Counted from the stretch's first letter, positions 14,186 through 48,030 are shown. The stretch: 49,154 nt of DNA from an uncultured bacterium (GCA_965369705.1 CBDURF010000002.1:1-49154), one strand, 5' to 3'. Notes: generated by a model from the sequence alone, not told the origin. Numbers and translations are program-made.

Positions 14186-14398
14186 GGGGCCGGTTATCGT
14201 TTCGATGTTACCTTTTTACCGTCCCGTGGGCAAGGCCATCGGCGGCAATCGGTGACAACCTCGGCGCTTTGGAGGCGAACAAATCCTGTTTTTTTCGACT
14301 GTTGAGGCATCGGCGGTAGGAAAAACATTTTCCCGGCCACGTTTTTGGGGGAATATCTGGCGGATGCAGCCGTCCCGGGATTCCAACCGAAAGGTCCC

Positions 14399-15451
14399 AT
14401 GCTTATCAACCCACCGCATACCACACCAGCCGACCCACGCGACATCCTGGTTGTCCGTTTCGGTTCGCTTGGTGACCTGTGCCTGCTGGGCTGGGCCCTG
14501 GCCCGGCTGGCCGATCGCCTGGGCGGTGAGAACCGCCGGGTGACCCTGGTGACCAAATCAGCCTTCGCCCCTCTGATGGAGCACGTGCGCGGAATCCACA
14601 GGGTGGTTCCCTTGCCAGGCTCCGGCGCCGGTGATGTGGTCCGACTGGCCGGGGAATTGCGTGGCAGGTCCTGGGATCTGGTCATCGACGCCCACAACGT
14701 CTTGCGGGGCCATCTGCTTTTTGGCATGATGCGGCGCCGGCCGGAGCGGCGGTTGGCCAAGGACACCGCCGCCCGACTGACCTTCATGGAGTTCGGACAC
14801 CGTGGGAACAGGCTGGACCGCACCATGCACGACCGTTTCGAGGAACTGACCGCCGGCTTGGCGGCCGGTCGGGAAAACCGCGGCGAAACCCTCCCCCCAC
14901 TGGCCTCCCTGACGGCAAACCGGACCGATCAATCCGCGCCGGACATCCTGGGCTTCGCCCCCGGCGCCCAGTGGGACACCAAGCGGTGGCCCGAAGAGCA
15001 TTTTGTCGCCTTGCTGCGCATGCGTCTGCGGGACCACCCCGGTCCCGTCCGGATCTTCCTGGGCCCTCGCGAGGAGAACTGGTTCGACGGCGGTTCCCTG
15101 GCAAGGGCCGTAAGGGACAGCGGACAGACGGAAATCATCCGAGACCGCTCCCTGGCCGAGGTGGCGACCCTGCTGTCCGAGTGTCGCCAACTGGTGACCA
15201 ACGACAGCGGTCTGCTGCACGTGGCCGAAGCCGTCGGCACGCCCGTCCTGGCCATATTCGGGCCGACCGTCCGGGAATTCGGCTACTACCCGGTGCTGGC
15301 CGGCAGCAGGGTTCTGGAACGGCCCCTGGATTGCCGGCCCTGCTCGCGCAACGGCAAGCGGCCCTGCCACCGGGGAGATTTGGCCTGCCTTCGGGACATA
15401 CCGCCGGCCGAGGCCTACGCTGTATTGAACTCCATGGAGGAGGATCGATGA
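14399..15451 (+). CDS. Glycosyltransferase family 9 (LPS heptosyltransferase-like)
   Basis: ILVVRFGSLGDL N-terminal motif and C-terminal LVTNDSGLLHVAEAVGTPVLAIFGPT. The start was chosen at the ATG at 14399. The ORF extends to a TTG at 14345. Confidence 0.85.
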   Translation: MLINPPHTTPADPRDILVVRFGSLGDLCLLGWALARLADRLGGENRRVTLVTKSAFAPLMEHVRGIHRVVPLPGSGAGDVVRLAGELRGRSWDLVIDAHNVLRGHLLFGMMRRRPERRLAKDTAARLTFMEFGHRGNRLDRTMHDRFEELTAGLAAGRENRGETLPPLASLTANRTDQSAPDILGFAPGAQWDTKRWPEEHFVALLRMRLRDHPGPVRIFLGPREENWFDGGSLARAVRDSGQTEIIRDRSLAEVATLLSECRQLVTNDSGLLHVAEAVGTPVLAIFGPTVREFGYYPVLAGSRVLERPLDCRPCSRNGKRPCHRGDLACLRDIPPAEAYAVLNSMEEDR

Positions 15452-16773
15452 TTCAGCGGGAATCCGAGCATTCCGCGCAGGGGACCAGGACCGGCTTTCT
15501 GCTTGGTCTCTACCGCGGACTGAGCCCCGCCCTGTGCGCGGCGACCAGGCTGGCCGGGCCTCTGTCACCAAAACTGGCCGAGGGCATCGCCGGTAGGCGG
15601 GGATTGATGGACCGGCTGACCGAGGGCGCCGCCCTGGTGCGGGGCGGGATCTGGATCCACGTCACCTCCGTGGGCGAGTACGAACAGGCCCGGCCGATCA
15701 TCGACGCCCTGAAAAAGCGGCCCAACCCGCCCCCGGTCGCCGTGACCCACTTCTCCCCCTCGGGTTTCGAATACGCCAAGGGCCGTCCCTGCGCCGATCT
15801 GCATGATTATCTGCCTTTTGATCATCCTGCCGATATGGCCCGCTTGATGGATCTCTGGCGGCCCCGCCTGCTCGTGTTCGTGAAGTTCGACTGCTGGCCC
15901 AACCAGGTCGTGGCCGCGGCTGATCGGAACATTCCGGTGGTCCTGATCGCCGGCTCCCTCCAGCCCCACAGCGCCCGGCTCAAACCCCTGGGCAGGTCCC
16001 TGTTCCGGGACGTCTTCAACCGCTTCGCGCACCTCGGGGTCTGCACACCCGAAGACCGCGGGCGCTTCATCGACAATTTGGGCGTAAGGTGCCCCGTTTC
16101 GGTCACGGGGGACACCCGCGTGGAGCAGGTAATCCTCCGCTACGAAGCGGCCAAGGTCGGGGACACCGCCTCGCGCCTGCGGGAACTGGGCGGTCGCCTG
16201 CTGATCATGGGCAGCACCTGGCCTGCGGATGAGAAGTTGTGGCTGCCGGTGCTTGGCAGGTTGCTGGGGTCGTTTCCCGATCTGCGGGTCATCTTGACGC
16301 CCCACGAACCCACGGCGGACCGTCTGGAGTCCCTGGAAGGCGCCTTGAGCCGCCGGGAAATCCCTCATCGCCGCCTCTCCGTGCTCATGGCCGATCCCCG
16401 CGGCGGCGAGGACCCCACCCGGGTCATCCTCACCGATTCCATCGGAGTGCTGGCGGAGATCTACCGGGCGGGCCATCTTACGTACGTCGGCGGCAGTTTC
16501 ACCACCGGGGTCCACAACACCATGGAACCCGCCGTGGCCAGTATGCCGGTCATGTTCGGTCCCGTGATCCACAACGCCGAGGAAGCAGGGTTGCTGGTCC
16601 GGCGTGGCGCGGGCTTCATCCTGGAAAAGCCCGACGACGCCCTTGCCGTCGCCGGCGGCCTGCTGAAGGAACCGGCCCGTCTGGAGACCCTGGGTGAAAC
16701 CGCCCGGCAGGTCGTCCTGGACCAGCGGGGGGCCACCGCCCGCAGCATGGCCATGATCGAACCCTATCTCTGA
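15448..16773 (+). CDS. waaA: 3-deoxy-D-manno-octulosonic acid (Kdo) transferase
   Basis: IWIHVTSVGEYEQARP (compare the HSVSVGE motif of E. coli WaaA). GT30 C-terminal half. The ATG overlaps the upstream stop (ATGA). The 600-aa ORF extension from 14971 was rejected. Confidence 0.9.
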   Translation: MIQRESEHSAQGTRTGFLLGLYRGLSPALCAATRLAGPLSPKLAEGIAGRRGLMDRLTEGAALVRGGIWIHVTSVGEYEQARPIIDALKKRPNPPPVAVTHFSPSGFEYAKGRPCADLHDYLPFDHPADMARLMDLWRPRLLVFVKFDCWPNQVVAAADRNIPVVLIAGSLQPHSARLKPLGRSLFRDVFNRFAHLGVCTPEDRGRFIDNLGVRCPVSVTGDTRVEQVILRYEAAKVGDTASRLRELGGRLLIMGSTWPADEKLWLPVLGRLLGSFPDLRVILTPHEPTADRLESLEGALSRREIPHRRLSVLMADPRGGEDPTRVILTDSIGVLAEIYRAGHLTYVGGSFTTGVHNTMEPAVASMPVMFGPVIHNAEEAGLLVRRGAGFILEKPDDALAVAGGLLKEPARLETLGETARQVVLDQRGATARSMAMIEPYL

Positions 16774-16798: not shown

Positions 16799-17752
16799 AT
16801 GCGACCGGAACAGGCCGACCAGATTCTCACCTCAGGCAAGCTCCCCCTCAAGGATGCGGAAGCGCGATGGCGCATGCCCTACGCCGCGAAGCCCAAGTTC
16901 ATCCAGATGGAAACCGTGACCAAATGCAACGCCAAGTGCCCCTTCTGTCCCCAGAACGAGATCGTGCGGGATCCCGCGCGCATGCCGGCGGAGACCTGGC
17001 GGAAGATCGTCGACGACACCCGCGGCTGGGGCCTCATCTATCGGCCGTTCCTGACCAACGAACCTTTCGTCGACAACCGCATGCCCGAGATCGTGCGTTA
17101 CATCAAGGACAATGACCCCACCGCCCGGGTGGAATTCAACACCAACGGCGAACTGATGACCGAGAAGCTGTCCATCGACCTGCTGGAAGCCGGCGTGGAC
17201 ATCATGCGCTTTTCCATCGACGGATTGAGTCGCGAAACCTATGAGCCCTCGCGCATCGGCATCGATTTCACAAAGGTGATGGAACGAACCCGGCGCTTCC
17301 TCGAACTGTGGGACAAGGGCGGCTACCGAGACAAGGTGTTCACCGAACTGCGCATGATCGAGGTTCCCGAAAACAAGCACGAAGTGGAAGCCTACCGGGA
17401 TTTCTGGGGTCCCCGCTGCAGCGAGGTCCTGATCACCACCATGTACCAGTGGCCCTGGACCGGGCAGAAGCGCGAGGACGTGGTGCTCAAGCCCTGTCTC
17501 AAAATCCTGGACGAGATGTTCTTCTACACCAACGGCAACGCGACGATCTGCTGCTGGGACGTCCATGAGCGGGCGGTCGTCGGCAACGTCAACGAGCAGT
17601 CCGTGGGTGAGATATGGGAGAGTTACGCCGCGCGGTGCATGCGGGCCGCCCTGGATGACGGACGGCGCGACCTGCTGAATCTGTGCAGCCGCTGCAACGC
17701 CTACCAGGACTATGATTTTTCCAGGTTCGCTAAGAACGGCGATACGGAATAG
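16799..17752 (+). CDS. Radical SAM enzyme with a Cys-rich SPASM/twitch-like C-terminal region
   Basis: CNAKCPFCP (CxxxCxxC) near the N-terminus. C-terminal cysteines KPC...ICCWD...LCSRCNAY. GGGAGGA lies 5 nt before the ATG at 16799, which is 25 nt after the waaA stop. Confidence 0.85.
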   Translation: MRPEQADQILTSGKLPLKDAEARWRMPYAAKPKFIQMETVTKCNAKCPFCPQNEIVRDPARMPAETWRKIVDDTRGWGLIYRPFLTNEPFVDNRMPEIVRYIKDNDPTARVEFNTNGELMTEKLSIDLLEAGVDIMRFSIDGLSRETYEPSRIGIDFTKVMERTRRFLELWDKGGYRDKVFTELRMIEVPENKHEVEAYRDFWGPRCSEVLITTMYQWPWTGQKREDVVLKPCLKILDEMFFYTNGNATICCWDVHERAVVGNVNEQSVGEIWESYAARCMRAALDDGRRDLLNLCSRCNAYQDYDFSRFAKNGDTE

Positions 17753-18443
17753 GGTCCTCGAGTCCGGCCCGGGCGAAACCGCGCAGCCGCAGTCGGCAGC
17801 TCTCGCACTCGCCGCAGGCCTCGTCGGAGTCGATGTAACAGGACCAGGTCAGATTCAGGGGTACATCCAGCTCGATCCCCCGGCGGACGATGGCCTCCTT
17901 GTCCAGACCGATCAACGGGGTGCGGATGGCGATGTTCGTGTCGGACCTGGTTCCCGCGTCGACGGCGGCCCCGAACAGACGGTAGAATTCCTCCCGGCAG
18001 TCCGGGTAACCGCTGCTGTCCTCCTCCACCGCCCCGATGAACAACGCCTCGGCGCCAATGACCTCGGCCCAGGAAACCCCCACGCACAGGATATGGGCGT
18101 TCCGGAAAGGAACATAGGTCGAGGGAGTTGGTCCATCTTCGGCCGGCAGGCCCGTCTCCACCTGCAGGTCCTCGTCCACCAGGGAAGATCCCCCGATGTC
18201 CTTCAGAAAGGAGATGTCCGCCACCAGCAGTCGGGTGATTCCGAAATGGTCCGCCAACTCCTGGAAGGCCCTGAGCTCCCGGGCTTCGGTGCGCTGACCG
18301 TAGTTGGTGTGCAACAGGGCAACCTCGAATTCCCGCGCCGCCTCGGCCAGGCACACCGCCGAATCAAGGCCGCCGCTGACCAGGACCACCGCCAGGGGCA
18401 GGGTTGGCCTCTCCCTTTTTGACCTGTTCAACGGATCGGCCAA
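17730..18443 (-). CDS. queC: 7-cyano-7-deazaguanine synthase
   Basis: AVVLVSGGLDS PP-loop and C-terminal Zn cysteines SCY...CGECESCRLR. The true start is a non-ATG codon between about 18395 and 18443 (TTG at 18443, or CTG/GTG after AAGGGAGAGG). The long N-terminal ORF extension overlaps queE and was rejected. Confidence 0.88.
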   Translation of the reverse strand: MADPLNRSKRERPTLPLAVVLVSGGLDSAVCLAEAAREFEVALLHTNYGQRTEARELRAFQELADHFGITRLLVADISFLKDIGGSSLVDEDLQVETGLPAEDGPTPSTYVPFRNAHILCVGVSWAEVIGAEALFIGAVEEDSSGYPDCREEFYRLFGAAVDAGTRSDTNIAIRTPLIGLDKEAIVRRGIELDVPLNLTWSCYIDSDEACGECESCRLRLRGFARAGLEDPIPYRRS

Positions 18444-18444
18444 C

Positions 18445-19107
18445 TCAAACCCCCCGGTCGACTTCGGGCCAAACGACCCGGTGCAGCTGGATCTGAAAGT
18501 AGACATCGAGACCATCGGCCAGGATCCATTCAGCCAGGTCGGAAGGACGCAATCTTCCCTGGACGGGTGAAAAGGTGATCTCGGCCTCGGGCGGAATCCG
18601 GTCTCCGGCCCGGACGATTTCCCGGCCCCATTCGTAATCGTTCCTGTCCACACAAACGATCTTGACCTCGTCGCCGGAACCCAGGCCGGCGATCCCCTCC
18701 CAGTCGATGAGCTCGGCGGGGATACCACTCCCGGGCGCCTTGAGGTCGACGATCCGGTGCACGCCCGCGGGAACCTGTCCGAGAGGAACGAGTTTATCAT
18801 GCCCGAGGACACCGCTGGTTTCCAGCAGGACCGTGCGACCGTCGGCCAGTAGGGCCGTCAGGAGATCCACGACCTCCGCCTGCAGCAGCGGTTCGCCTCC
18901 CGTCACCAGGACCGTGGGAAATCCGTGGCCCTGGACCTCGGCGAGGATCTCGCGTACACCCAGGGAGCGGCCGCCGGTGAAGGAATGTTCTGAATCGCAC
19001 CAGACGCAGCGGACATGGCATCCCGTCAATCGCACCAGAGTGCAGGACCGCCCGATGAAACGTGACTCCCCGCAGATGGCGACGTATATTTCGTTGATCA
19101 GAAGCAT
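18445..19107 (-). CDS. queE: 7-carboxy-7-deazaguanine synthase (radical SAM)
   Basis: MLINEIYVAICGESRFIGRSCTLVRLTGCHVRCVWCDSEH, the QueE-type Cx3Cx2C cluster. 220 aa from the ATG at 19107. Confidence 0.9.
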   Translation of the reverse strand: MLLINEIYVAICGESRFIGRSCTLVRLTGCHVRCVWCDSEHSFTGGRSLGVREILAEVQGHGFPTVLVTGGEPLLQAEVVDLLTALLADGRTVLLETSGVLGHDKLVPLGQVPAGVHRIVDLKAPGSGIPAELIDWEGIAGLGSGDEVKIVCVDRNDYEWGREIVRAGDRIPPEAEITFSPVQGRLRPSDLAEWILADGLDVYFQIQLHRVVWPEVDRGV

Positions 19108-22311: not shown

Positions 22312-22389
22312 TGGCGGGAGCGACGAGACTTGAACTCGCGACCTCCGGCTTGACAGGCCGGCGTTCTAACCAAACTGAACTACGCCCCC
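22312..22389 (-). tRNA. tRNA-Asp (anticodon GTC), CCA encoded
   Basis: Hand-folded cloverleaf: GGGGGCG TA GTTC AGTTTGGTTA GAAC G CCGGC CTGTCAA GCCGG AGGTC GCGAG TTCAAGT CTCGT CGCTCCC G CCA. Confidence 0.93.
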
Positions 22390-25348: not shown

Positions 25349-28300
25349 TCAACGCATCATCACCAGCCGCTGCATGTCACTGGCCACGACACCCTCGCTG
25401 GTGTCGATCTCCACCCGGTACAGATAGGTTCCGTTGCCCATCTCATCCCCGACATTGTCCCGCCCGTCCCATTCCACGATTCCCGACTCGCCGCCGATGA
25501 ACCGGAAGGGGATGCGGGCAACGGGACGGCCGGCGACCGAAAAGACCCGGATAGTGCCGGAACCGGAAGCCAGTCCGCGCGTCCCGAAAACGAACCGGGT
25601 GACCTCACGCATGGGGTTCGGAAAATTGTAGACCACGCCGAAGGCCTGATCGATGGCGTCCCCGGTGCCCTCTTGAAGCACCAGATCGGTCGGATAGCCG
25701 TCGATCGTCAGCACGACCATGTGCTCATCGTCCGCGTTCTGCGTCGGCGACGTGGCCGTGAAATTCACCGTCAGATGCTGATTCTTGTCCAGCAGGAACG
25801 CCACGTCCGTCAGGGTGAGCGTCTCACTGTCCAGGGCGAAGTCGGCGTCAGGGTCGTACCCCAGCAACCAGGCCGCGCTGGTGACCTGGGAATTGAAGCG
25901 GAGCGGCGTGTCGGCGGGAAACACGAAAGTCGCGGGGTCGATGGCGCTGCCGCCGATCGAAAACACCGCGGTCTGGGGCATCTTCAGAACGAGTTCGTAA
26001 TGCCGGTCGGTTTCCAGGGGTCCGCCGGTATCCCAGACCTTGACCGTCAGGTCGTGATCGAAGGGCCGCACCGGTACCTGCAGGCTGTAGTGCACCACTT
26101 GGTGCCCCGTCGCCCCGGGCGGCAGGGTTTCGGTGACGATATTCCCGGTCAGGTCCACTCCGTCGGAGCCCTTGACCTGGATGCGGTCGATACCGGCTTC
26201 ATCCTTGGCGGTCACGGTCACCGTGCGCACGTTGGTCTCATCGGTGGCGAAGATCTCGGCCTCGCCGGAAATCTCCTGGTCCGGCGAACCGACCAGGGTG
26301 GCGGTGACCTGCGCCTCGCCCGCGTCCAGCCCCATCAGGGGATCGCCCAGGATGACGTACTGGGAAACCATTTCCTGGGTGATGCTTCCCGGGGTCACCG
26401 CGTAGACATCGGCCTCGGCCGCCCACATCAACTCGCCCAGAGCCCAGCGACTGCGAAACTCGGCTCCGGCGCCCACGGAACGCTGGGCGGGGGGATTGAC
26501 CATCCAGCGCCGAAAGATGTACTCCCCGAACTTCCTGTTCTCGGCGATGTATTCATAACCCGAACTGCCATAGGTCGCCGAGGCGCCGGCCCGCGACCTT
26601 AAAAGAAATTTCTCGGAGATTGACCGTTCATGCGCCCTGGTGCTGGATTCCACCGTATTCTGGGCCCAGTCGGCGATATGACAACCCAACCCCATGAATA
26701 CCCAGGGTTTGTCGGTGTTGCCGATCTTGTCCACATCCCGGCGCCCCAAGCCGTCGTTCCTGTCCTTAAGCCAGTATTCCGAAGACAGGAGGTAGGTATT
26801 GGCGTGACCCTGGTAATGGGCCACCAAGCCTCCTTCGCTGAGTTTGGCCAGCAGGATCGGGGTGGCGGCGGCGGCCGTGTAGCTCTGGACATCCCTCATG
26901 TTGCGTGCCTCGGGCGTCGGAGGCGGCGGATCATAGGGGAAGGCCGGATCCAAGGTGTCTTCCAACAGCACCAGAACACTGTCCAGGACTACCGGCGAAC
27001 CGCTGCGCCACAGCCGGGAAAGGGAATCCCGCTCGCTCATGGCGAAAACGTATTCGTTAAACTGGTAGACAAGGGTACTGAGGGCTTGGTCCCCGTACCC
27101 GTTTGACCACCGGTCGTCGGCGAAGAAGATGCCCTTGCGGCGCCAGGCCTGGTCGGCCGCCACGTTTTCCACGGTCATGACCTTGTCGATCATGATGTCG
27201 AGCTCGGCCACCGAGTTGCAGGGAAACCGGCCGGAGTACATGGCCCAGGGACCATACACATCGGCAGGGAAATTATCCTCGGGGTAGTTCATGCCCGATT
27301 CAAGGGTAACATACCATTTGTCCGAGGCCATCAGCTCAGGCGCGTAACTGAGCGCCGTCTGCACATGGTAATGGGTCGGCACCCAGTCCTTGGACCAGGC
27401 GCGGGCCGAAGGAAGCACCCCCTTTTCCAGGACGTTTTCGTTCGCGTCCCCCACCATGGTCAGGGCCCAGCTGTTCCAGCGGGTGATGGCATGGGTCACG
27501 AAGCGTTTGAGGGCCCAGGGATCCTTCAACCCACCACTGTACCAGTCGAACAGGTCCTCCACATCCACCACGTGGACAATGAGGTTCCCGCCTGCCCGGC
27601 TTATGCGGTGCTCGATCCACCGGTCCAGGGCGGCCCGGAAGGTGGGATGGGTGATCACGATCAGATCGGGAGCCGGACCCGCCAGGTCGGTGGGATTGGT
27701 CGGGTCCGCGGCCACGGACGACAGGTGAGACGGGAATTCGTCCACGCCGTCGGTGGAAAAATTCCCCACGGCGGCGAAGGAGCGTGTCGGCCCGGATTGG
27801 TCCGGCATCACCGACAGGGTCCAGGTCAAGCCATCGGACGTCGTGATATTGCCCCCGCCGAGTTCCACCACCACCGGCTGCCGCGGATCGGTCACCTCGA
27901 TAAGACCGATGTTCGCGGAATTGAAACCGGTCACTTCCACCGGCTGCGGCCCGAGGCCGGCGCCGCAGTTGAAGGAGATCCTATTGTTGGTCGCCTGATA
28001 CAGGGCGTCGTAGGAGATCTTGATCCAATTCAGGAAGCTCAACACAATGGTTCCACGCGGGTTGTACATGCGGATTTCGGCATGATCGCCCAAGATGGCC
28101 GCCGGAGGCACGGAATAGTGAAGGGTGTCCTCATAGATGCTCGCCTGGACATGATCTCCCAGGTGCGTGGTCAAACTCGAGTCGGTGATCAGGTCGAAGC
28201 GCAGGGCCCTGCCCGAGTTGTTCAGGCCCACGACACCGATCTTGATTTCCACGTCGGATCCGGTCGGATCCGGGGCCCACAGTGTATTGATGCCCGCACG

Positions 28301-29791
28301 GACATCCAACGCGCGCACGGTGTTGAGGTAGAGGCGATCGACCCACACTTTGGGCAGATTCTCCCGGAAAGCCGGCTGTTCCTCGATGCGTTCGCTATGG
28401 CGATAACCGGACAGAGGGGTGCCCGTGGCCGCGGGCAGGGTGGTTTTCGCCATCCGGGACCAGGGCTGGCCCGCTTCGGCCTCGCTAGCGGCCAGCCAAT
28501 AGACGTTGGCTGCGTTTTTCATCTCCCAGGCGTCGCCGCAGCCGGGTATGGTTTCCGGCCCGTTCCCGAGGTCCGCGACATGGGACCCGTCGTCCCGCAG
28601 ACGCAAGCCGTAGAAGACGAAGAAATCGTCCCCATCGAAATTGTCCCCTTCCCCGACCATGTGGATGGGCACCTCGACCACCACGTACGGAGCCTGCCCC
28701 GATCCGTCGTCGAGAGCCGGGTTGTAACGGCGTTGATAGAGCCGGATCTGATCCTCGCGGATCACACCCTCGGGCAGAAGCCCTCGTGAATTCAGTCGGT
28801 CATAGGTCACGCGCACGAGTCCTGTCTTCCAGACCGCAAGCCGGGTTTCGGGTCCCAGCAGGGTTCCGGTCTTCCCGCCCCGCACCTTGTCCAGGCTGGA
28901 TTCATCGGCATCCTGGAAAGATGAGAAATCAACCCCCTGCCATGCCGCTTCGGTGGGCAATCGAGTCAACAGCTCATCATTCAGGAAGATGCCGCCGAAC
29001 CTGTCGTCGTTGCTGGTCGAGGACTTGCGGGCGTGGGCAGCCGTGATTGACCGGCCGGCGGAGGCGTCGGGCACGAAACGGATTTCCCAGGTACCGCCCG
29101 CGAGCACTTGTCCCGCCACGCCGGCCCCGTCGTGGCGAATGGGAACCACCTGATAGGATACGATGCGCCGCCCACGCCACCAGACCACCTTACCAAGGGT
29201 CACCGCGGTGGAGGCGGAGGCCCTCCCACGGCGGGCCAGGGCCTCGAGAGCCGTGGCCGGGATGACAGCGTCGGTGGGAGGTTCCTCGCCGGGAAGCACC
29301 AAAATTTCGGAGGCGGAATTGTCCCAGGATTCAGCGCCCTGGATGATGACCGGCACGCTTGACAACATCAGGGGACGGTCGCCCGCGGGCATCCACCGCT
29401 CTTCGATGGTCCTCAGTTCCGGGCGCGTTCCCGGAGGCACGACGACCCATCCACCATTACGCGGCAGACTGGGATGGCCCGGCTCACCGGAAGACACGAA
29501 CCCCGCCATGCTCACCTCATAAAGCGTAACAGGCGGGTCCCCGACGGTGCGGGGCGTCCAGACGGGATCGAGTCCCTTGACCGAGAAACGCAGCGCGTCC
29601 GGTCCGCTCGATATGTCGGAGATCCACGCCGCACCGTTTTCTGCTGCATCGGCGGCTGCAGCAACGGCAGGGGCCAGAGGAAAACCCAGAACGAGAAGTC
29701 CCAGAAGGATCCCCCGGCAAATTTGCGGGGTCAAACTCCGGGGATGGGAATTGCGGGTCAAATGGGTTAGACGATACACAGAACCATCCAT
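25349..29791 (-). CDS. Very large secreted peptidase C25 (gingipain-like cysteine protease) with a FlgD-Ig / T9SS type-A-like C-terminal domain
   Basis: C25 core runs from DLIVITHPTFRAALDRWIEHR to TMVGDANE. Candidate catalytic His is in YQGHANTY (codon 26804-26806). Candidate catalytic Cys is in MGLGCHIADW (codon 26681-26683). The last ~95 aa (25352-25636) read VYNFPNPM...IRVFSVAGRPVARI...VEWDGRDNVGDEMGNGTYLYRVEI. The signal-like segment is ILLGLLVLGFPLAPAVAAAADA. AGGAGA lies 5 nt before the ATG at 29791. Alternative starts are 29863 and 29890. Confidence 0.85.
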   Translation of the reverse strand: MDGSVYRLTHLTRNSHPRSLTPQICRGILLGLLVLGFPLAPAVAAAADAAENGAAWISDISSGPDALRFSVKGLDPVWTPRTVGDPPVTLYEVSMAGFVSSGEPGHPSLPRNGGWVVVPPGTRPELRTIEERWMPAGDRPLMLSSVPVIIQGAESWDNSASEILVLPGEEPPTDAVIPATALEALARRGRASASTAVTLGKVVWWRGRRIVSYQVVPIRHDGAGVAGQVLAGGTWEIRFVPDASAGRSITAAHARKSSTSNDDRFGGIFLNDELLTRLPTEAAWQGVDFSSFQDADESSLDKVRGGKTGTLLGPETRLAVWKTGLVRVTYDRLNSRGLLPEGVIREDQIRLYQRRYNPALDDGSGQAPYVVVEVPIHMVGEGDNFDGDDFFVFYGLRLRDDGSHVADLGNGPETIPGCGDAWEMKNAANVYWLAASEAEAGQPWSRMAKTTLPAATGTPLSGYRHSERIEEQPAFRENLPKVWVDRLYLNTVRALDVRAGINTLWAPDPTGSDVEIKIGVVGLNNSGRALRFDLITDSSLTTHLGDHVQASIYEDTLHYSVPPAAILGDHAEIRMYNPRGTIVLSFLNWIKISYDALYQATNNRISFNCGAGLGPQPVEVTGFNSANIGLIEVTDPRQPVVVELGGGNITTSDGLTWTLSVMPDQSGPTRSFAAVGNFSTDGVDEFPSHLSSVAADPTNPTDLAGPAPDLIVITHPTFRAALDRWIEHRISRAGGNLIVHVVDVEDLFDWYSGGLKDPWALKRFVTHAITRWNSWALTMVGDANENVLEKGVLPSARAWSKDWVPTHYHVQTALSYAPELMASDKWYVTLESGMNYPEDNFPADVYGPWAMYSGRFPCNSVAELDIMIDKVMTVENVAADQAWRRKGIFFADDRWSNGYGDQALSTLVYQFNEYVFAMSERDSLSRLWRSGSPVVLDSVLVLLEDTLDPAFPYDPPPPTPEARNMRDVQSYTAAAATPILLAKLSEGGLVAHYQGHANTYLLSSEYWLKDRNDGLGRRDVDKIGNTDKPWVFMGLGCHIADWAQNTVESSTRAHERSISEKFLLRSRAGASATYGSSGYEYIAENRKFGEYIFRRWMVNPPAQRSVGAGAEFRSRWALGELMWAAEADVYAVTPGSITQEMVSQYVILGDPLMGLDAGEAQVTATLVGSPDQEISGEAEIFATDETNVRTVTVTAKDEAGIDRIQVKGSDGVDLTGNIVTETLPPGATGHQVVHYSLQVPVRPFDHDLTVKVWDTGGPLETDRHYELVLKMPQTAVFSIGGSAIDPATFVFPADTPLRFNSQVTSAAWLLGYDPDADFALDSETLTLTDVAFLLDKNQHLTVNFTATSPTQNADDEHMVVLTIDGYPTDLVLQEGTGDAIDQAFGVVYNFPNPMREVTRFVFGTRGLASGSGTIRVFSVAGRPVARIPFRFIGGESGIVEWDGRDNVGDEMGNGTYLYRVEIDTSEGVVASDMQRLVMMR

Positions 29792-29921
29792 TCCGGTCTC
29801 CTGGACAGAAGTTGCTGAATGATCGATCAGGGGCAGGCACGGCCCGGTTGGGCATACTTTCATTATAGGACCGAATGAAAGCGGGGTCAATGACTTGCCC
29901 CCGGAAATCAGGCGTGGAAGA

Positions 29922-29962
29922 GGAAAAACAAACGAAAGGGGCGGGTCAACCCGCCCCTTTCG
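29922..29962 (-). terminator. Strong Rho-independent terminator after secreted-protein gene A
   Basis: Minus strand reads cgaaaggggcggg-ttga-cccgcccctttcg followed by tttgttttt. Confidence 0.85.
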
Positions 29963-30010
29963 ACAATCACGGAACCGGAATCAATCCGGATATCCTTTCA
30001 AGCAAGCTCC

Positions 30011-30634
30011 CTACCGATACAGAGCCTTGACCGATCCGAAGGACGCGTCCTCGATAGCGACGACTTCGCCGTTGAAGGCCCATACGACGGAGTCAGTGGA
30101 CCCACCGGACGGGAACATTTGGATCAGCGGGGGATCGACGGGCAAAAACACCATCTGATCCGGGGCACTGGGAAGGGAAATAGGGCTCAGGGTGACTTCG
30201 ATCAGGCCCACGGTGGTGGTCATGAATTGGAACGAGATCAGCACGACCGACTCGTCTACCACCGCCCACGGGCTGGCAATCCCCACGGCGTATTCCAGGT
30301 AACCATCGCCGATATGGCTGTTGTCACCGATATTGAGGCTATTGGGGGGAAGCGCGTCAAGCAGCTTGAACATGTTGCCCGCGGGGTTGAAGTTCAGCTG
30401 GACTTCGAAAGCGGTGATGGCGGTATAGGGTACGTCGAATTCGTCCGCGGGTCTGGTCAAAACCAGGAACACGTCCACGGCCGAGCCGACGTCCATGGTA
30501 TAGGTATTGCCTGTGCCGTCGGCGAACTGGTAGAGACCCACCTGGTTGGTGTACATGTGTTGGGCAAACCCCGTGCTGGGAGCCAGCAGAGCAAGCGCGG
30601 CCAGTGCCGACACAGCAAAAAACAACTTCTTCAT
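30011..30634 (-). CDS. Secreted 207-aa protein A, paralog of B (unknown family, weak cohesin-like signature, conserved C-terminal tail)
   Basis: Signal peptide MKKLFFAVSALAALALLAPSTGFA-Q. It aligns along its length with protein B and ends ...VVAIEDASFGSVKALYR followed by stop. GGGGA lies before the ATG. Confidence 0.8.
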   Translation of the reverse strand: MKKLFFAVSALAALALLAPSTGFAQHMYTNQVGLYQFADGTGNTYTMDVGSAVDVFLVLTRPADEFDVPYTAITAFEVQLNFNPAGNMFKLLDALPPNSLNIGDNSHIGDGYLEYAVGIASPWAVVDESVVLISFQFMTTTVGLIEVTLSPISLPSAPDQMVFLPVDPPLIQMFPSGGSTDSVVWAFNGEVVAIEDASFGSVKALYR

Positions 30635-31015
30635 TTTCGATTCCCCTTTCTTGGAAAATCCGTTTTTCAGCCCTGGAACAATTGGCGATCCTGCGAAATC
30701 CGAAACCGGCCAGAGCGACGATCCATCATGCCGGGTCCCGACTTGGGCCAGAAACAGGAAACGCTTTCAGCGACAACAGCTAAAAGATACCGAGTCTCAT
30801 CCAGCCCGACAAGTACTCTTTTCGGTCCGAGGCGAATTTTATTGACCGAATAAAATGACCCGGTGTTCCCTCCCTCCGCACGAGCAAAAACAGGTGTTTG
30901 CCAGGTCCAGGAAGGGACAAGATTGAATATCCGGGCAATTTCCAGGTCTGTCAAGGGTTAACAGAAGGCGGGGAATTGGGCTGTTCTCGGTGTCCAGATT
31001 GCCGGGAACAGACGC

Positions 31016-31049
31016 AAAAAGGATCCGGGTGGAATTTCCACCCGGATCC
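31016..31049 (-). terminator. Strong Rho-independent terminator after secreted-protein gene B
   Basis: Near-perfect 29-nt palindrome: 14-bp arms ggatccgggtggaa / ttccacccggatcc around a single unpaired central base. It is followed on the minus strand by TTTTT. Confidence 0.88.
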
Positions 31050-31091
31050 TTGGACCTACGTCCAGCAGCCGAAGCTGCAACTCACACCGTT

Positions 31092-31715
31092 TTACCGGAA
31101 CAAGCTCTTCACGCTGCCAAAGCTGGCATTCTCGACACCAACAACACAGTTTTCGAAGTTGACGGTGGCGACGGGAGTGTCCGGCCCGCCGGTCGACTGA
31201 CCGGCCTGGTACAGAACTTTGGTAACGTCGTTCAAGAGTACCGGGTAGTCCCCGGGGATCGAGGGATCCACCGGGATACTGCTGAGATAAAATTCCATCG
31301 TTACCAACGGGCTCAACAGCATGAACTGCCACGAGTGCAGAACCGTCGCGGGATCACCCGGGAGGCCTTCAGCCAAGCCGACGATGTAGGTACCTTCCAG
31401 AACGTCAGTCTCGTTACCAAGGTTGAGACCGGTGGTGACCCCATTGGCGATGGTGGAGGCTAACCGGAAAAGAAAACCTTCCATTCCGGTAGGAACCACG
31501 ATGCGATAGCCCAATTCGTAGGCGCTGATCGCGGGAGCGGTCGGATTGGTGGTGACGATGTAGGCCATGAACGGCAAGCTGGCTCCAATAATCAGGCAAT
31601 TGTCATCGGCGTTCATGTCGAAGTAGATCCCAATCATGTCATCATCGGGATCAACGACAGCGAAAGCAGAAGTTGCCATCAGACTGACCAGCAAAAGAAC
31701 TACCAACTTCTTCAT
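31092..31715 (-). CDS. Secreted 207-aa protein B, paralog of A
   Basis: Signal peptide MKKLVVLLLVSLMATSAFA-V. AGGAGA lies 6 nt before the ATG at 31715. The 17-codon upstream ORF extension was rejected. It ends ...VVGVENASFGSVKSLFR followed by stop. Confidence 0.8.
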   Translation of the reverse strand: MKKLVVLLLVSLMATSAFAVVDPDDDMIGIYFDMNADDNCLIIGASLPFMAYIVTTNPTAPAISAYELGYRIVVPTGMEGFLFRLASTIANGVTTGLNLGNETDVLEGTYIVGLAEGLPGDPATVLHSWQFMLLSPLVTMEFYLSSIPVDPSIPGDYPVLLNDVTKVLYQAGQSTGGPDTPVATVNFENCVVGVENASFGSVKSLFR

Positions 31716-31875
31716 GTTGTGTCTCCTAATTGTGAGCAGGTACTTTCCGTGAAATCGCCGTATCAATCGGGCGAGACGTTGGTGGCCCTGCCACCTGCAT
31801 TAGCAGAGCCACCCTTGGTCTTGCATCCCGGAATTCCTCCGTCACACCCGGCCAGGCCGGGCGCGGCTGGGAATC

Positions 31876-32550
31876 CTAGGGGCAATGGTTTCCGTAGAAC
31901 TTCGCCATTTCAGGCAGATCGATAATGTTCACGTCAATGTCGAAGTACAGATCCGACCGGAAATGGTACACCGGATCGAAGAAGTCAGCCGTAAACGCCT
32001 GGAGATCAACCAGGTTGACGACACCGTTGCCATCAAGGTCCGGGCTGTTCCAGCTAACATCAATAGTGTTGGACAAGGCGTTGCCGTTGATCACAACATA
32101 AGTTTGAAGGAAGCTTTGTCCACCCGCCGAAAGCGCGTCCTGGAACTCAGTCATTCCATCAATATCCGTGCTGAAATCAGCGGTGCAACCGCCCGTGCAG
32201 CAAATCAAACCGACATTTTCGGTGAGGGGGTCAGAGGGACACTCAAGCCACATATCCTCGGCGGGATAGTTGACGATGGTATCACCCGCGCCATCCCTGA
32301 CTTCCAAATGGATGGTGGCATCGCCGAGTACCTGAGCGGCCGGGTACGGGGCGATAACCTTGACGGCTACATCCAACGAATGCTCTGCGGAACCACCAGG
32401 CACGACAAGTACAACCATCTTACCGGGAAAAAGTGTATCCTCCCGAGCGGCAGTACAGTATGTCACATCCGGAACACCCGCCATAGCGAGCGAAGCGGCA
32501 CCAACAATCAGGGTAATTAAAAAAATACCCATAATTTTCCTAAGAACCAT
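31876..32550 (-). CDS. Secreted 224-aa protein C with a C-terminal dockerin-like duplicated EF-hand segment
   Basis: Signal peptide ...LITLIVGAASLAMA-G. The Cys-containing N-terminal region is probably a beta-sandwich. The last ~56 aa (31879-32046) read SPDLDGNGVVNLVDLQAFTADFF...DLYFDIDVNIIDLPEMAKFY. GGAGGTG lies before the ATG at 32550. Confidence 0.8.
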   Translation of the reverse strand: MVLRKIMGIFLITLIVGAASLAMAGVPDVTYCTAAREDTLFPGKMVVLVVPGGSAEHSLDVAVKVIAPYPAAQVLGDATIHLEVRDGAGDTIVNYPAEDMWLECPSDPLTENVGLICCTGGCTADFSTDIDGMTEFQDALSAGGQSFLQTYVVINGNALSNTIDVSWNSPDLDGNGVVNLVDLQAFTADFFDPVYHFRSDLYFDIDVNIIDLPEMAKFYGNHCP

Positions 32551-32755
32551 TAGGACACCTCCAAAAAAGGCACATTCTAGCGAGGGTGGCTAACCCAAGC
32601 GGACACATTGACTACTGCGTTGAGCTCTCCTTCCCACTCACATGTCCATCACTTGACATCATTAGATTACCATACGCATCGGGCCAATGCAACCAATATT
32701 ATTTATCTTCTGCGGAAAATTAGAGAAAAAATCGAAATCTTCAATTTCGATGAGT

Positions 32756-32803
32756 AAAAAAAGACCCTCGACTCCATTTTTGGGGAGAATCGAGGGTTTT
32801 TTT
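32756..32803 (-). terminator. Rho-independent (bidirectional-looking) terminator downstream of tRNA-Val
   Basis: accctcga(ctcc)...(ggag)aatcgagggt hairpin, flanked by A7 on one side and T7 on the other. Confidence 0.8.
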
Positions 32804-32826
32804 AGAAAATGTGAAATTTTTTTATA

Positions 32827-32903
32827 TGGTGGGCGAAGCAGGACTCGAACCTGCGACTTCCTGCGTGTAAAGCAGGCGCTCTAGCCAACTGAACTATTCG
32901 CCC
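32827..32903 (-). tRNA. tRNA-Val (anticodon TAC), CCA encoded
   Basis: Hand-folded cloverleaf: GGGCGAA TA GTTC AGTTGGCTA GAGC G CCTGC TTTACAC GCAGG AAGTC GCAGG TTCGAGT CCTGC TTCGCCC A CCA. Confidence 0.93.
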
Positions 32904-33070
32904 ACGCTATCCTGGAACGAACGCCACAAAAAGAAGGGCAACAAGACGCAGTAGCCGAGTACCAGCAGAACCGGTCCGAGGGTGAGCATACCGGCGGCCA
33001 GGGTGGCGAAACCCAGGACGATCGCCCCCAGCGAGACCCACAACAACCAGAACTTTTTCACCAAACCCAT
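32894..33070 (-). CDS. Possible 58-aa two-TM membrane protein whose stop codon lies inside tRNA-Val
   Basis: MGLVKKFWLLWVSLGAIVLGFATLAAGMLTLGPVLLVLGYCVLLPFFLWR contains two hydrophobic helices. GGAGGG lies about 8 nt before the ATG at 33070. The last codons, GGC GAA TAG, are tRNA nucleotides. Confidence 0.45.
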   Translation of the reverse strand: MGLVKKFWLLWVSLGAIVLGFATLAAGMLTLGPVLLVLGYCVLLPFFLWRSFQDSVGE

Positions 33071-33165
33071 TGCCTTGCCCTCCGGCAGCGCGGAAACAAA
33101 AAAATCATCGGGACTCGCCGAGCCCCTTGGAATCGGCTGAACAATAAAAGGAGGAAGCGGTTCCG

Positions 33166-34299
33166 TCAATCATTCCGGTGGCCGCGATTTCCGGCCCTGG
33201 CGCGTCGAAATTCCTGCACGGCCGCCTCGTGCTCACGGGCGGTCCTTGAGAAAACGTGTCCACCCTGGCCGTCGGAAACGAAATACATGGCCCGGCAAGC
33301 GGGATCCGGATGGGCGGCAGCCTCAATGGCCGCCAAGCCGGGATTGCCGATGGGCCCCGGCGGCAGTCCCCTGTTACGGTACGTGTTGAACGGGGAGGCG
33401 ACCTCCAGATCCCGGTAGAAAAGGCGTTTGCCCTTTTTTCGCAGGGTGAAGGCAACCGTGGGGTCCGCTTCCAGTCGCCAACCCTTCCGCAGGCGATTGA
33501 CGTAGACCGCGGCAATGAGAGGACGCTCATCGTCGCGCCGGGCCTCGGCCTCCACGATGGAGGCGAGGGTCAGCAGATCTTGAGGAGTGAGGTCGAGATC
33601 CGTCACCGGCACGGAACCGGCCATCACCGAATCCAGGCGAGCCCATTGGGTCGCAACCAGGAAATCCGCCACCTTGGCCGCGCTGGTGCCCTCGGTGAAT
33701 TGAAAGGTGTCCGGCGAAAGATGTCCCTCGCACCACCGGAACCGCCGCGGGTGGCGAGCGGACTCGGCCGCCAGCAGGGAATCGTGAGCAGCTGCCGCGG
33801 TCTCGCCTCCCTTCAGCAGGCGTCCCTTTCGTGCGGCCGTCATCACCAGGGAATCGGCCGCAGCCAGGAAATCGGCCGGTGAAAACCCCAGCGCTTCGGA
33901 TACAAGATCGGCGATCTCCTCGGCGTCCAGGCCCTCGGGAATGGTCACCTTCACCTGCACGGCGACCCCCATGGTCAGAACCTGCAGCAGGTCCCGGGGT
34001 GAAGCGCCGACCGGCAATTCATAGAGACCGGCCCGCAACGCCCGCCCCTTGCCCGTCAACCTGGCTCCCGTCAGAAGAACCGTGGGATGTTTCAGCAGGC
34101 CTCGCGCCGCCAGGGAATCGGCGGCGGCGGTCAGGGTCATGCCGGGGGGAATCCTCATCAGGATCGTCGCGGGTGCGGGTACGGACTCCCGGTCCGACAC
34201 TGTACGCGGACCCGGCCCCGTCCACAGGCGCCAGCCCCACAGGACAATCACCAGACCCAGCAGGAAGGCGACCCCCGCCACGGCGGCCCAGCGTTTCAT
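33166..34299 (-). CDS. mltG: Endolytic murein transglycosylase MltG (YceG-like)
   Basis: N-terminal TM helix, IVEAEARRDDERPLIAAVYVNRL, YNTYRNRGLPPGPIGNPG. The start ATG shares 1 nt with the ruvX stop (TGATG). Confidence 0.93.
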   Translation of the reverse strand: MKRWAAVAGVAFLLGLVIVLWGWRLWTGPGPRTVSDRESVPAPATILMRIPPGMTLTAAADSLAARGLLKHPTVLLTGARLTGKGRALRAGLYELPVGASPRDLLQVLTMGVAVQVKVTIPEGLDAEEIADLVSEALGFSPADFLAAADSLVMTAARKGRLLKGGETAAAAHDSLLAAESARHPRRFRWCEGHLSPDTFQFTEGTSAAKVADFLVATQWARLDSVMAGSVPVTDLDLTPQDLLTLASIVEAEARRDDERPLIAAVYVNRLRKGWRLEADPTVAFTLRKKGKRLFYRDLEVASPFNTYRNRGLPPGPIGNPGLAAIEAAAHPDPACRAMYFVSDGQGGHVFSRTAREHEAAVQEFRRARAGNRGHRND

Positions 34300-46696: not shown

Positions 46697-46746
46697 AAAA
46701 AAACACACGTCTACCCCTACACCCTAGTTGCAGGTCAGCAGACGTG
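46697..46746 (-). terminator. Candidate terminator after kbl (bipartite hairpin + T7)
   Basis: On the minus strand, CACGTCT...AGACGTG is the outer stem and CCTGCA/TGTAGG the inner stem, followed by TG TTTTTTT. Confidence 0.45.
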
Positions 46747-46808
46747 GCGCGGGGAAGATAGGCTCAAGCCTCCATAATAGCAAACCCGACCAACACTTCT
46801 GCCGCCTG

Positions 46809-48005
46809 TCAGATCGCTCCGTGCTTGCGACCCACCGCCCCGAAGGCTTCCAGACACCGGTCCACGTGGGCATCGGTGTGCGCCGCCGAGGTCTGCAGCC
46901 GGATCCGCGCCTGTCCCCGGGGCACGACGGGGAAGCTGAACCCGATGCAGTAGATGCCCCTATCCAGCAGATCCGCCGCCATGCCCTGGGCCAGGATGGC
47001 GTCGTTGTCGTGCCCGCGGAAATGCACCGGGATGATGGGGTGATCGCCCTTGTCCACGTCGAAACCGAGCTCGACCAGGCCATCTCGCAGCCGCTTCTGG
47101 TTCCTGGCCAGGGTCCGCAGGGGGCCGGGATCCTCACGCAGGATCTTCAGGACTTCCAGCGTCGCCCCGCAGATCATCATGGGCACCGAGTTGCTGAACA
47201 GGTAGGGCCGGCTCTTCTGCCGCAGCCACTCGATGATCTCCCGGCGGCCGCTCGTGCAGCCGCCCAGGGCGCCGCCCAGGGCCTTGCCCAAGGTAGTGGT
47301 GATCAGGTCCACCCGGTCCATGACGTCAAACTTCTCGTGGGTCCCGCGGCCGGTGGGGCCGGTGAAGCCCGTGGCGTGGCTGTCGTCGACCAGGACCATG
47401 GCCTCGTACTTCCCGGCCAGGTCGCAGATATCCGGCAGCGGCGCCAGATGGCCGTCCATCGAAAAAACGCCGTCGGTGACGACAAGGCGAAACTCGGCGC
47501 CCTGGGCATCCTTCAGCTGGGTTTCGAGGTGGTCCATGTCCGCGTGGTTGTAGATGAACCGCTGCGCTTTGGCCAGCCGCACGCCGTCGATGATCGAGGC
47601 GTGGTTCAACTGGTCGGTGATGATGGCGCTGTTTTTGTCCAGCAGCGGTTCGAACACCCCGCCGTTGGCGTCGAAACAGGCAGCGTACAGGATGGTGTCC
47701 TCGGTGCCGAGGAAGTCGCTCAGTTCCCGCTCGAGTTGCTTGTGCAAGGTGGTCGTGCCGCAGATGAACCGCACCGAACTGAGGCCGTAACCCCACTCGT
47801 CCAGGGTACGGCGCGCGGCTTCCACGACCCGCCGATCCGAAGCCAGGCCCAGGTAGTTGTTGGCGCAGAAATTAAGGACGGTCTTTCCGCCCACCTTGAT
47901 TTCCGCCCCCTGCGGCCCCTCGAGAACCCGCTCGTTCTTGTACAGGCCCTGCTCCCGAATCGAGTCCAGCTCGGCCCGCAGAACCTCTCCGAATTTCCCG
48001 TACAT
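46809..48005 (-). CDS. kbl: Glycine C-acetyltransferase (2-amino-3-ketobutyrate CoA ligase)
   Basis: MYGKFGEVLRAELDSIREQGLYKNERVLEGPQGAEI...NFCANNYLGL. PLP-Lys context TTTLGKALGG. GGAAGGA lies before the ATG at 48005. An 8-amino-7-oxononanoate synthase assignment is less likely. Confidence 0.88.
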   Translation of the reverse strand: MYGKFGEVLRAELDSIREQGLYKNERVLEGPQGAEIKVGGKTVLNFCANNYLGLASDRRVVEAARRTLDEWGYGLSSVRFICGTTTLHKQLERELSDFLGTEDTILYAACFDANGGVFEPLLDKNSAIITDQLNHASIIDGVRLAKAQRFIYNHADMDHLETQLKDAQGAEFRLVVTDGVFSMDGHLAPLPDICDLAGKYEAMVLVDDSHATGFTGPTGRGTHEKFDVMDRVDLITTTLGKALGGALGGCTSGRREIIEWLRQKSRPYLFSNSVPMMICGATLEVLKILREDPGPLRTLARNQKRLRDGLVELGFDVDKGDHPIIPVHFRGHDNDAILAQGMAADLLDRGIYCIGFSFPVVPRGQARIRLQTSAAHTDAHVDRCLEAFGAVGRKHGAI

Positions 48006-48030
48006 CCATCTCGTCCTTCCGGCGGAGCCG

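Follow-up and report, generated by a model that had tools for sequence, protein, structure and literature searches.

A 49,154-nucleotide stretch of DNA from an uncultured Krumholzibacteriota bacterium (GCA_965369705.1, CBDURF010000002.1:1-49154; this whole stretch is henceforth the window) carries, between positions 25,349 and 32,550, a cassette of four genes coding for three small proteins with signal peptides, here termed A, B and C, and for a large C25-family cysteine peptidase. We tentatively read this locus as encoding parts of an envelope-tethered cohesin-dockerin-like system, with a probability of about 0.45. The evidence lies in the predicted cohesin fold of A and its paralogy to B, in the make-up of C as an immunoglobulin (Ig)-like module followed by a dockerin, in a conserved gene order, in the reuse of both kinds of module in large proteins with the C-terminal domain of type IX secretion system (T9SS) cargo, and in a short tail on A and B that behaves as a modular tag. 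From these observations we infer binding between cohesin and dockerin, a surface location, the role of the tag and a functional tie to the peptidase, which resembles the T9SS sortase PorU.

Under this scheme, A and B would be Sec-exported proteins, each with one cohesin-fold beta-sandwich and a short C-terminal tag that would hold it at the envelope, while C would be a Sec-exported Ig-like module joined to a dockerin. The beta-sandwich of A and B would bind dockerin modules, both that of free C and those of Ig-plus-dockerin modules inside large T9SS cargo, and the PorU-like enzyme would process proteins with T9SS C-terminal domains, including relatives that have several cohesin-fold modules.

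A Cohesin-Like Fold in A and B

Scans against Pfam and NCBIfam matched no family in either A or B, and searches of PDB sequences with A gave nothing useful. The fold is instead suggested by structure prediction. AlphaFold2 (AF2), run on a 42-sequence alignment, yields an all-beta model of A with a mean predicted local distance difference test score (pLDDT) of 87.7, rising above 94 across residues 30-190, and a predicted template modelling (TM) score of 0.79; the last 12 residues are disordered. When this model was compared with the PDB by Foldseek, cohesins of types I, II and III and of the non-cellulosomal kind made up 34 of the 35 top matches, the exception being a CLIPPER adhesin domain. 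The cohesin matches have E-values of 1.5e-5 to 2e-3 and TM-scores, normalised to the target, of 0.5-0.67. The best is the type II cohesin 1qzn (E = 1.5e-5), with 4fl4, 5k39, 3ghp and 2b59 among the others, and the archaeal non-cellulosomal cohesin 2xdh and its Clostridium perfringens counterpart 2jh2 reach TM-scores of 0.67 and 0.66. Because the top PDB matches are nearly all cohesins, the assignment of a cohesin-type beta-sandwich to the modelled A holds, and the proposal in a preliminary description of this DNA that the mature parts of A and B are cohesin-sized sandwiches finds support in the fold of A, the cohesin-dockerin reading given there being borne out in part.

The open reading frame (ORF) of B spans 31092-31766, with the real start at the ATG at 31715 (MKKLVV...). 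A and B are paralogous (BLASTP E = 7e-10, 40% identity across 114 residues), and an ortholog of B in the related locus L001, which was absent from the model of the A-family hidden Markov model (HMM), matches that HMM at 1.2e-40. A search of 1.84 billion cluster representatives with the A-family profile recovered 1138 proteins at E <= 0.001, of which 519 also pass E <= 1e-10; single modules of 190-220 residues make up almost the whole set. Two proteins (P0275, P0280) match just the first ~100 positions of the profile and continue into a PEP-CTERM motif or a sulfotransferase domain; fused gene calls or frameshifts might account for these.

The signal peptides of A and B end in ...STGFAQ and ...SAFAVV and contain no cysteine, and neither Por_Secre_tail nor FlgD_ig was matched in A, B or C in the Pfam and NCBIfam scans. 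The signal peptides of A (MKKLLFAVSALAALSLLAPSTGFAQ; 30560-30634), B (MKKLVVLLLVSLMATSAFAVV; 31655-31715) and C (MVLRKxMGIFAITLIVGAASLAMAG; 32479-32550), all on the minus strand, are unusually conserved even where the mature parts of the homologues are just 40-60% identical. Type V pilins, which are matured by a C25 peptidase, were considered as a model for A and B. This type of donor-strand assembly was rejected: there is neither a lipobox nor a conserved Arg/Lys cleavage site past the first strand, and the tail is not needed to complete the sandwich.

An Ig-Like Module and a Dockerin in C

The dockerin-like repeat that had been noted at the end of C is real and constitutes a genuine two-repeat dockerin, going by profile searches, Pfam matches of half of the homologues tested and Foldseek. 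It comprises two tandem segments of ~22 residues, each with an EF-hand-like calcium loop and a helix. A search with the C family returned 67 proteins, sharing a very conserved signal peptide, a middle domain with PAEDMWLE, the dockerin consensus and the end GAxCP; the C-terminal consensus reads NSPDIxGDGVVNLxDV...FRSDFxxDGxVNLSD. Invariant in the family alignment are D171, D182, D200, D204, D211, C118 and C223, the aspartates occupying positions 1 and 12 of the first loop and 1, 5 and 12 of the second. Pfam Dockerin_1 matches 17 of 34 family members (best 5.3e-6), and the family profile finds the dockerin 2y3n_B in the PDB at E = 1e-7 and, more weakly, several X-module-dockerin (XDoc) chains; the single sequence of C yielded nothing useful in PDB sequence searches and no match in NCBIfam.

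The AF2 model of C (pLDDT 94.1) has a helix at its N-terminus, an Ig-like sandwich and two helices at residues 180-190 and 211-217. Its Foldseek matches include a filamin Ig domain (4umg, E = 9e-5), the dockerin 2y3n_B (TM-score 0.75, 1.6 Å) and the XDoc chain 5g5d_B. C is thus, going by profile and model, an Ig-like module with a calcium-type dockerin, the architecture that binds type II cohesins in cellulosomes. A pairing of C with A would fit, since the best structural matches of A are type II cohesins, with which X-module-dockerins naturally pair.

Reuse of Both Modules in Large Proteins

Both types of module also occur within large proteins. Three members of the A family, P0227 (831 residues), P0242 (1284 residues) and P0304 (1032 residues), contain two or three A-like modules each, and all end in a FlgD_ig/T9SS C-terminal domain without the tail; two of the three also have Ig domains of the ASH/HYDIN type. 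In L135, two large proteins with T9SS C-terminal domains (2280-4784 and 4890-9395, both on the minus strand; 834-835 and ~1501-1515 residues) each include a single C-like Ig-plus-dockerin module, which matches profile positions 21-211 at E about 1e-59. Their remaining parts have no Pfam match, and a stand-alone C homologue adjoins them. The same domains bear either the tag or a T9SS C-terminal domain and are never seen with both.

A PorU-Like C25 Peptidase

The sortase PorU, a member of the C25 family, cleaves the C-terminal domain off T9SS cargo and attaches that cargo to the cell surface. The ORF of the C25 protein of the cassette spans 25349-29890, with the likely start at the ATG at 29791, and the protein is laid out as a signal peptide, a long N-terminal region, a catalytic domain (711-1154) and a T9SS-type C-terminal domain (~1384-1480). 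Pfam Peptidase_C25 is matched end to end (E = 2.3e-48, model positions 2-373 of 374) and FlgD_ig weakly (0.016). The best NCBIfam match is the T9SS sortase PorU (NF033707; E = 6e-42), at 143 bits, below the 420-bit cut-off of this equivalog. The sole PDB sequence match is Porphyromonas gingivalis PorU (6za2, E = 3.8e-16), which covers the beginning of the catalytic region as well as the C-terminal domain, where residues 1384-1478 align with PorU 1055-1153 (independent E-value 2.4e-5). The motifs GHAN (995) and GLGCH (1034) are consistent with the His/Cys dyad of clan CD, the catalytic residues being assigned by motif. By these sequence criteria the protein is a PorU-like sortase homologue and not a gingipain-type cargo protease. 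The preliminary description had called it a T9SS-tagged C25 protease; the C25 domain and a weak FlgD_ig/T9SS-type domain are indeed present, but it appears to be a homologue of the sortase of the system and not ordinary cargo. Genes for SprA/Sov, PorV and PorK-N were not found within the 49-kb window; proteins with T9SS C-terminal domains are present in related contigs (L006, L135).

Conserved Order and Transcription Units

The host is placed among the Krumholzibacteriota, close homologues of A being named Candidatus Krumholzibacteria or Krumholzibacteriota. C, B, A and the C25 peptidase are four ORFs, all on the minus strand, and lie at the coordinates first stated for them (Table 1). All homologues of A, B and C are annotated as "hypothetical protein", and those of the C25 protein at best as "C25 family cysteine peptidase".

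The expectation that the four genes should be neighbours in related genomes was confirmed, as the order tRNA-Val, C, two to five A-like genes, C25, spoIID, GH3 (a glycoside hydrolase family 3 gene), tRNA-Asp and M49 (a peptidase gene) recurs in six independent Krumholzibacteriia loci (the window, L001/L002, L003, L004, L009 and L136; partially in L008). Identity of C among loci with the conserved cassette falls to 35%. The number of A-like genes varies from 2 to 5, with five copies in L004, and the internal order is unchanged. The tRNA-Val gene, the upstream border of the cassette, keeps its position in L001, L003, L004, L009 and L136. Together with tRNA-Asp(GTC) (22312-22389, minus strand), it brackets the block C-B-A-C25-spoIID-GH3, and both tRNAs keep their positions in related Krumholzibacteriia loci. 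Synteny of the housekeeping flanks (the mltG/yceG, tRNA-Val, spoIID and nagZ region) spans more than 20 kb in every canonical locus and is partial in Candidatus Eisenbacteria. Two distant C homologues are sited elsewhere, either alone or adjoining large T9SS cargo (L005, L135). In four further loci, the A-like genes do not adjoin C and C25 but are arranged head to head with a gene for a ~690-760-residue protein ending in ...KMxWDLAWFxKYLLG (L010 3475-5526, L011 7673-9967, L013 626-2725, L014 7496-9571, all on the minus strand).

Each gene of the cassette has its own promoter-like site and a good ribosome-binding site, and often a strong terminator. Since a terminator-like hairpin and conserved promoter-like sites divide them, the cassette genes are separate transcription units, and an operon was rejected on the same grounds; C25 is probably transcribed separately from A, judging by these signals.

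Table 1. Features of the cassette and its borders, in window coordinates
Feature	Position	Strand	Details or basis
Gene A, 207 residues: signal peptide, predicted cohesin-fold module (~residues 30-190), C-terminal tail	30011..30634	-	AF2 and Foldseek
Tail of A: SFGSVKALYR, then stop	30014..30043	-	Motif scan; disordered in model
Gene B, 207 residues: signal peptide, putative B-subtype cohesin-fold module (VVDPDDDMIGIYFD...), C-terminal tail	31092..31715	-	ORF, BLASTP, family HMM
Tail of B: SFGSVKSLFR, then stop	31095..31124	-	Motif scan
Gene C, 224 residues: signal peptide ~1-24, Ig-like "X" domain ~28-168, two-repeat dockerin ~169-224, end ...GNHCP	31876..32550	-	Alignment, AF2, Foldseek
Dockerin module of C, residues 169-224	31879..32046	-	Loop 1, DLDGNGVVNLVD; loop 2, DLYFDIDVNIID
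PorU-like C25 cysteine peptidase, 1480 residues	25349..29791	-	Pfam, NCBIfam, PDB, motifs
Promoter-like site TTGACA-17-GATATT, upstream of A	30926..30954	-	Same hexamers upstream of A-type gene in L001, L004
Terminator-like hairpin	29933..29962	-	49 nt past stop of A; 13-bp stem, 10 G-C pairs, then T-run
Promoter-like site TTGACC-17-TATAAT, upstream of C25	29862..29890	-	11/12 match; identical hexamers in L001, L004
tRNA-Val(TAC)	32827..32903	-	Directly upstream of C; upstream border of cassette

The remainder of the window is ordinary chromosome, with glmS, glmM, uvrA, a gene for a transferase of 3-deoxy-D-manno-octulosonic acid (Kdo), queC, the M49 peptidase gene, the GH3 enzyme gene and spoIID on the upstream side, and mltG/yceG, ruvX, rluD, lspA, ileS, divIVA, fusA and fba on the downstream side. 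G+C content falls to 0.555-0.571 within 30001-34000, as against 0.61-0.65 elsewhere; third-position G+C is 0.68 in B and 0.59 in C, below that of neighbouring genes (0.75-0.88), and the spacers within the cassette are long (e.g., 457 bp from B to A). Low G+C and long spacers could reflect either high expression or a distinct history. ORFs without a Pfam match at E <= 1e-5 lie at 9059-9889 (-, 276 residues), 9978-11453 (-, 491 residues), 14194-14826 (-, 210 residues) and 46728-48062 (+, 444 residues). In the ORFs of the Kdo transferase (14971-16773, +, 600 residues) and QueC (17730-18812, -, 360 residues), ~220 and ~140 residues, respectively, precede the Pfam domain, and these are either N-terminal extensions or over-long ORF calls.

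The C-Terminal Tail as a Modular Tag

A and B terminate in ASFGSVKALYR and ASFGSVKSLFR, instances of a motif, [ST][WF]GxVKxL[YF]R, at the extreme C-terminus. K203 and R207 of the tail are invariant across 42 homologues of A, and in this family conservation is higher in the signal peptide and tail than in the core. The tail of A, at 10-17 residues, is disordered and so is no T9SS-type beta-sandwich sorting domain, which has ~70-100 residues. An outer-membrane beta-signal was likewise rejected, the last tail residue being Arg or Gln and not aromatic. In the window and related loci, the looser pattern [WF][GS]x[VIL]Kx[LM][FY] followed by one residue and a stop occurs only at the ends of A-like ORFs, except in L012 and L007; in the latter it ends an unrelated protein of ~210 residues. 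The L012 ORF (70-444, -) codes, as does one in L119 (8516-8923, -), for a small cytochrome with four CxxCH motifs and a weak Pfam class III cytochrome c match, ending in ...RNWGEVKALFR.

The tail extends far beyond the A family. A metagenome scan for DNA encoding WGxVKxL[FY]R-stop gave at least 120 stretches, from which in-frame ORFs of at least 100 residues were kept; the resulting set of at least 111 tail-bearing ORFs forms at least 50 BLASTP clusters once the tail is removed. T or S precedes the W in 103 of the 111 ORFs listed, though the scan pattern left that position free, and a Pro/Thr-rich linker precedes the tail. Among the ORFs listed, 5 are A-like by hmmsearch (tail removed, at least 100 profile positions), and the three BLASTP clusters to which these belong hold 8. 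The other carriers include PPC, right-handed beta-helix, NHL propeller, CHRD, phosphoesterase and class III cytochrome c domains, and two C-like dockerin proteins carry the tail themselves (L020, L024). The tail is thus a modular tag on dozens of unrelated secreted proteins. In the proteins scanned it was matched by no Pfam or NCBIfam model, and our literature searches found no mention of it. In a short helix, its W, V, L and Y would share a face bordered by K and R, a pattern read from the sequence that would fit an interfacial anchor or a docking peptide.

The Same Slot in Candidatus Eisenbacteria

The tail has so far been seen in Krumholzibacteriota and Candidatus Eisenbacteria, and among the matches listed the commonest carrier family belongs to the latter. 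There the genomic slot corresponding to that of the cassette was seen in two MAG contigs, L137 and L138. The slot follows yggS, yggT, a PNP phosphorylase gene, lspA, rluD, ruvX (L138 only) and mltG/yceG, and holds a tandem array of a tail-bearing family, in five copies in L138 (10000-16800) and ten in L137 (9200-18800). The family is Cys-rich, of ~245 residues, with the signature GINLSWxDCG ... CxGC ... CIVLN, and all copies but one divergent one in L137 end in TWGxVKSLYR. Alongside the array lies a dockerin protein of ~215 residues, HMM-confirmed in L138 and judged by eye from the C-terminal sequence in L137. Two genes beyond in L138 is a C25 peptidase with Propeptide_C25 and FlgD_ig; the L137 stretch stops short of the equivalent position.

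Homology of this family to A can be excluded: in hhalign, the full alignments align over 17 columns, which are the tail, and the trimmed cores give a probability of 0.2%. A PDB sequence search with its profile gave nothing useful. As the family in the slot is non-homologous to A, conservation between the two phyla extends to the tail and the slot but not to the cohesin fold.

Weighing the Alternatives

Several observations weigh against a cohesin-dockerin-like system. Pfam Cohesin matches none of the 42 members of the A family even at E <= 10, the A-family profile finds no cohesin among PDB sequences, and hhalign of the family with the cohesins of Clostridium thermocellum CipA (sequences verified against 1anu, 1aoh and 3kcp) gives a probability of 0.3%. 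The sequence cues by which the preliminary description had linked A and B to cohesins are hence no better than chance: the strands that it singled out, ITAFEVQLNF and VVLISFQFM, are real and fall within predicted beta-strands (72-83 and 129-139), and the CipA strings that it quoted are accurate, occurring in PDB 1aoh_A, but the resemblance has no statistical weight. The TM-scores of A against cohesins are only moderate. The window copy of C has no Pfam match at E <= 1, Dockerin_1 included, its second loop is atypical, with Y at position 3 and I at position 6, and it has neither a catalytic nor a cargo domain. The two families differ greatly in size (1138 cluster representatives for A versus 67 proteins for C), and many A-like genes are distant from any C or C25 gene (L006, L007, L010-L014). 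Adjacency of the cassette genes is by itself weak evidence because the entire region, including the housekeeping genes, is syntenic, and between A and C25 stand the hairpin and a conserved promoter-like site. Finally, the Eisenbacteria slot, also with a dockerin protein, is occupied by a family that has only the tail in common with A.

The main rival reading makes the tag, rather than dockerin binding, the defining feature: A and B would then be abundant structural envelope proteins, forming arrays of paralogues anchored by the tag at the surface or in association with the outer membrane, the sandwich would be a mere stable scaffold, one of several, and the dockerin of C would bind something else or the tag itself. 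The strongest argument for this is the Eisenbacteria slot, where 5 to 10 copies of a non-homologous family stand beside a dockerin protein, and it is joined by the spread of the tag over unrelated clusters, the shifting copy number of A-like genes in Krumholzibacteriia, the expression signals of the individual genes, the better conservation of the signal peptide and tail than of the core, and the tag on some C-like proteins. We nonetheless hold it to be somewhat unlikely, as the near-exclusive structural match of A to cohesins and the recurrent pairing with a dockerin protein are hard to call chance, and both modules are reused in large T9SS cargo as interaction modules would be. A different role for the tag, as a sorting signal that the neighbouring PorU-like C25 enzyme or the T9SS would recognise, would make A, B and the other tag-bearing proteins substrates of a short-signal branch that dispenses with the full 80-residue C-terminal domain and either exports them across the outer membrane or fixes them to it. 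The T9SS recognises a beta-sandwich C-terminal domain, which a signal of 10 to 17 residues cannot form; moreover, C25 has its own promoter-like site beyond the hairpin that parts it from A, and most of the sampled tag-bearing loci have no C25 gene nearby, though their contigs are short. These points make such a sorting role quite improbable, despite the occurrence of tag-bearing arrays beside or near a PorU-like C25 gene in two candidate phyla, the mutual exclusion of tag and T9SS C-terminal domain, the Pro/Thr-rich linker, as often found with sorting signals, and the typically extracellular cargo (beta-helix, NHL, PPC, CHRD, phosphoesterase, multihaem cytochrome). A sorting link of this kind is in any case compatible with either a cohesin-dockerin-like system or envelope proteins defined by the tag.

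A broader form of the idea sees the tail as an undescribed C-terminal sorting or anchoring signal of candidate phyla of the Fibrobacteres-Chlorobi-Bacteroidetes (FCB) group, serving at least 50 unrelated families, centred on the slot with its mltG/yceG gene, dockerin protein, tag-bearing array and C25 sortase of the PorU kind, and operating via the PorU-like enzyme or the T9SS as a short alternative to the classical C-terminal domain, with A and B as its main clients in Krumholzibacteriota; in this full extent we consider it unlikely. Least probable, and in our estimation very much so, is that the four genes are functionally unrelated and merely keep an ancestral order around mltG/yceG, tRNA-Val, spoIID and nagZ. 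The long synteny of the flanking housekeeping genes, the separate transcription units and the placement of the distant C homologues of L005 and L135 elsewhere would all be expected of such a relic, but a dockerin protein beside cohesin-fold proteins is precisely the pairing expected of interacting partners, and the internal order of the cassette is stable while copy number shifts.

Parallels With Known Systems and Significance

In cellulosomes, the pair of type II cohesin and XDoc tethers the complex to the cell surface. The model of A is closest to type II cohesins such as those of this pair (C. thermocellum SdbA cohesin with CipA XDoc, 2b59; A. cellulolyticus 1qzn), and in C, as in the XDoc dyad of clostridial cellulosomes, an Ig-like module directly precedes a two-repeat dockerin. 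In contrast to clostridial cellulosomal cohesins, A and B have no detectable sequence homology to cohesins, and the proteins here are single modules that lack SLH and sortase anchors, enzymes and carbohydrate-binding modules. The host, too, differs in being a diderm of the FCB group with lipopolysaccharide genes (Kdo transferase), and a tag of 10 residues is the candidate anchor. Cohesin and dockerin modules from outside cellulosomes were reportedly described by Peer et al. in 2009, as cited in PMC8542988. Non-cellulosomal cohesins (Archaeoglobus fulgidus 2xdh; the C. perfringens toxin-complex cohesins 2jh2 and 2vo8) are, like the proteins here, stand-alone or few-module and unrelated to cellulose breakdown, and 2xdh and 2jh2 are among the best structural matches of A; however, they are recognisable as Pfam cohesins by sequence, which A and B are not.

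The P. gingivalis PorU (6za2; NF033707) has, as the window protein does, a C25 domain with His and Cys motifs and its own T9SS-type C-terminal domain; going by sequence comparison, the window protein is ~320 residues longer, falls short of the equivalog cut-off and has no porV neighbour. The tail parallels PEP-CTERM, GlyGly-CTERM, LPXTG and the "choice-of-anchor" domains of NCBIfam in lying at the extreme C-terminus, behind a Pro/Thr-rich linker, of dozens of unrelated secreted domains, and, as with known anchor tags, some of its domains also occur with another sorting signal, in this case the T9SS C-terminal domain. Unlike PEP-CTERM, GlyGly-CTERM and LPXTG, it comprises ~10 conserved residues without a transmembrane helix or a basic cluster following one, and we know of no dedicated processing enzyme for it.

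A closer parallel in terms of host comes from Cloacimonadota, another FCB-group candidate phylum, for which a cellulosome-like system with a scaffoldin bearing a T9SS C-terminal domain has been inferred (PMC8542988). Its dockerin-bearing secreted proteins and its cohesin repeats on a protein with a T9SS C-terminal domain recall P0227, P0242, P0304 and the L135 proteins. The Cloacimonadota modules match Pfam/InterPro and the dockerins sit on enzymes (PMC8542988), whereas the window has only minimal single-module proteins and an unannotated cohesin-fold family. In the literature searched, we found no previous link between the candidate phylum of the host and cohesin-dockerin systems, and searches on the T9SS in Krumholzibacteriota or Eisenbacteria returned nothing relevant. 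The part of the locus most likely to be truly new is the tag.

If A and B do bind dockerins, cohesin-dockerin biology would gain a large sequence-invisible family, with 1138 cluster representatives all labelled "hypothetical", and would reach into diderm candidate phyla, where it would work alongside type IX secretion. The tag, for its part, would allow a simple prediction of the surface proteome in Krumholzibacteriota and Eisenbacteria, and, with enzymes and a multihaem cytochrome among the proteins that bear it, would indicate a hitherto unknown step in the sorting of envelope proteins.

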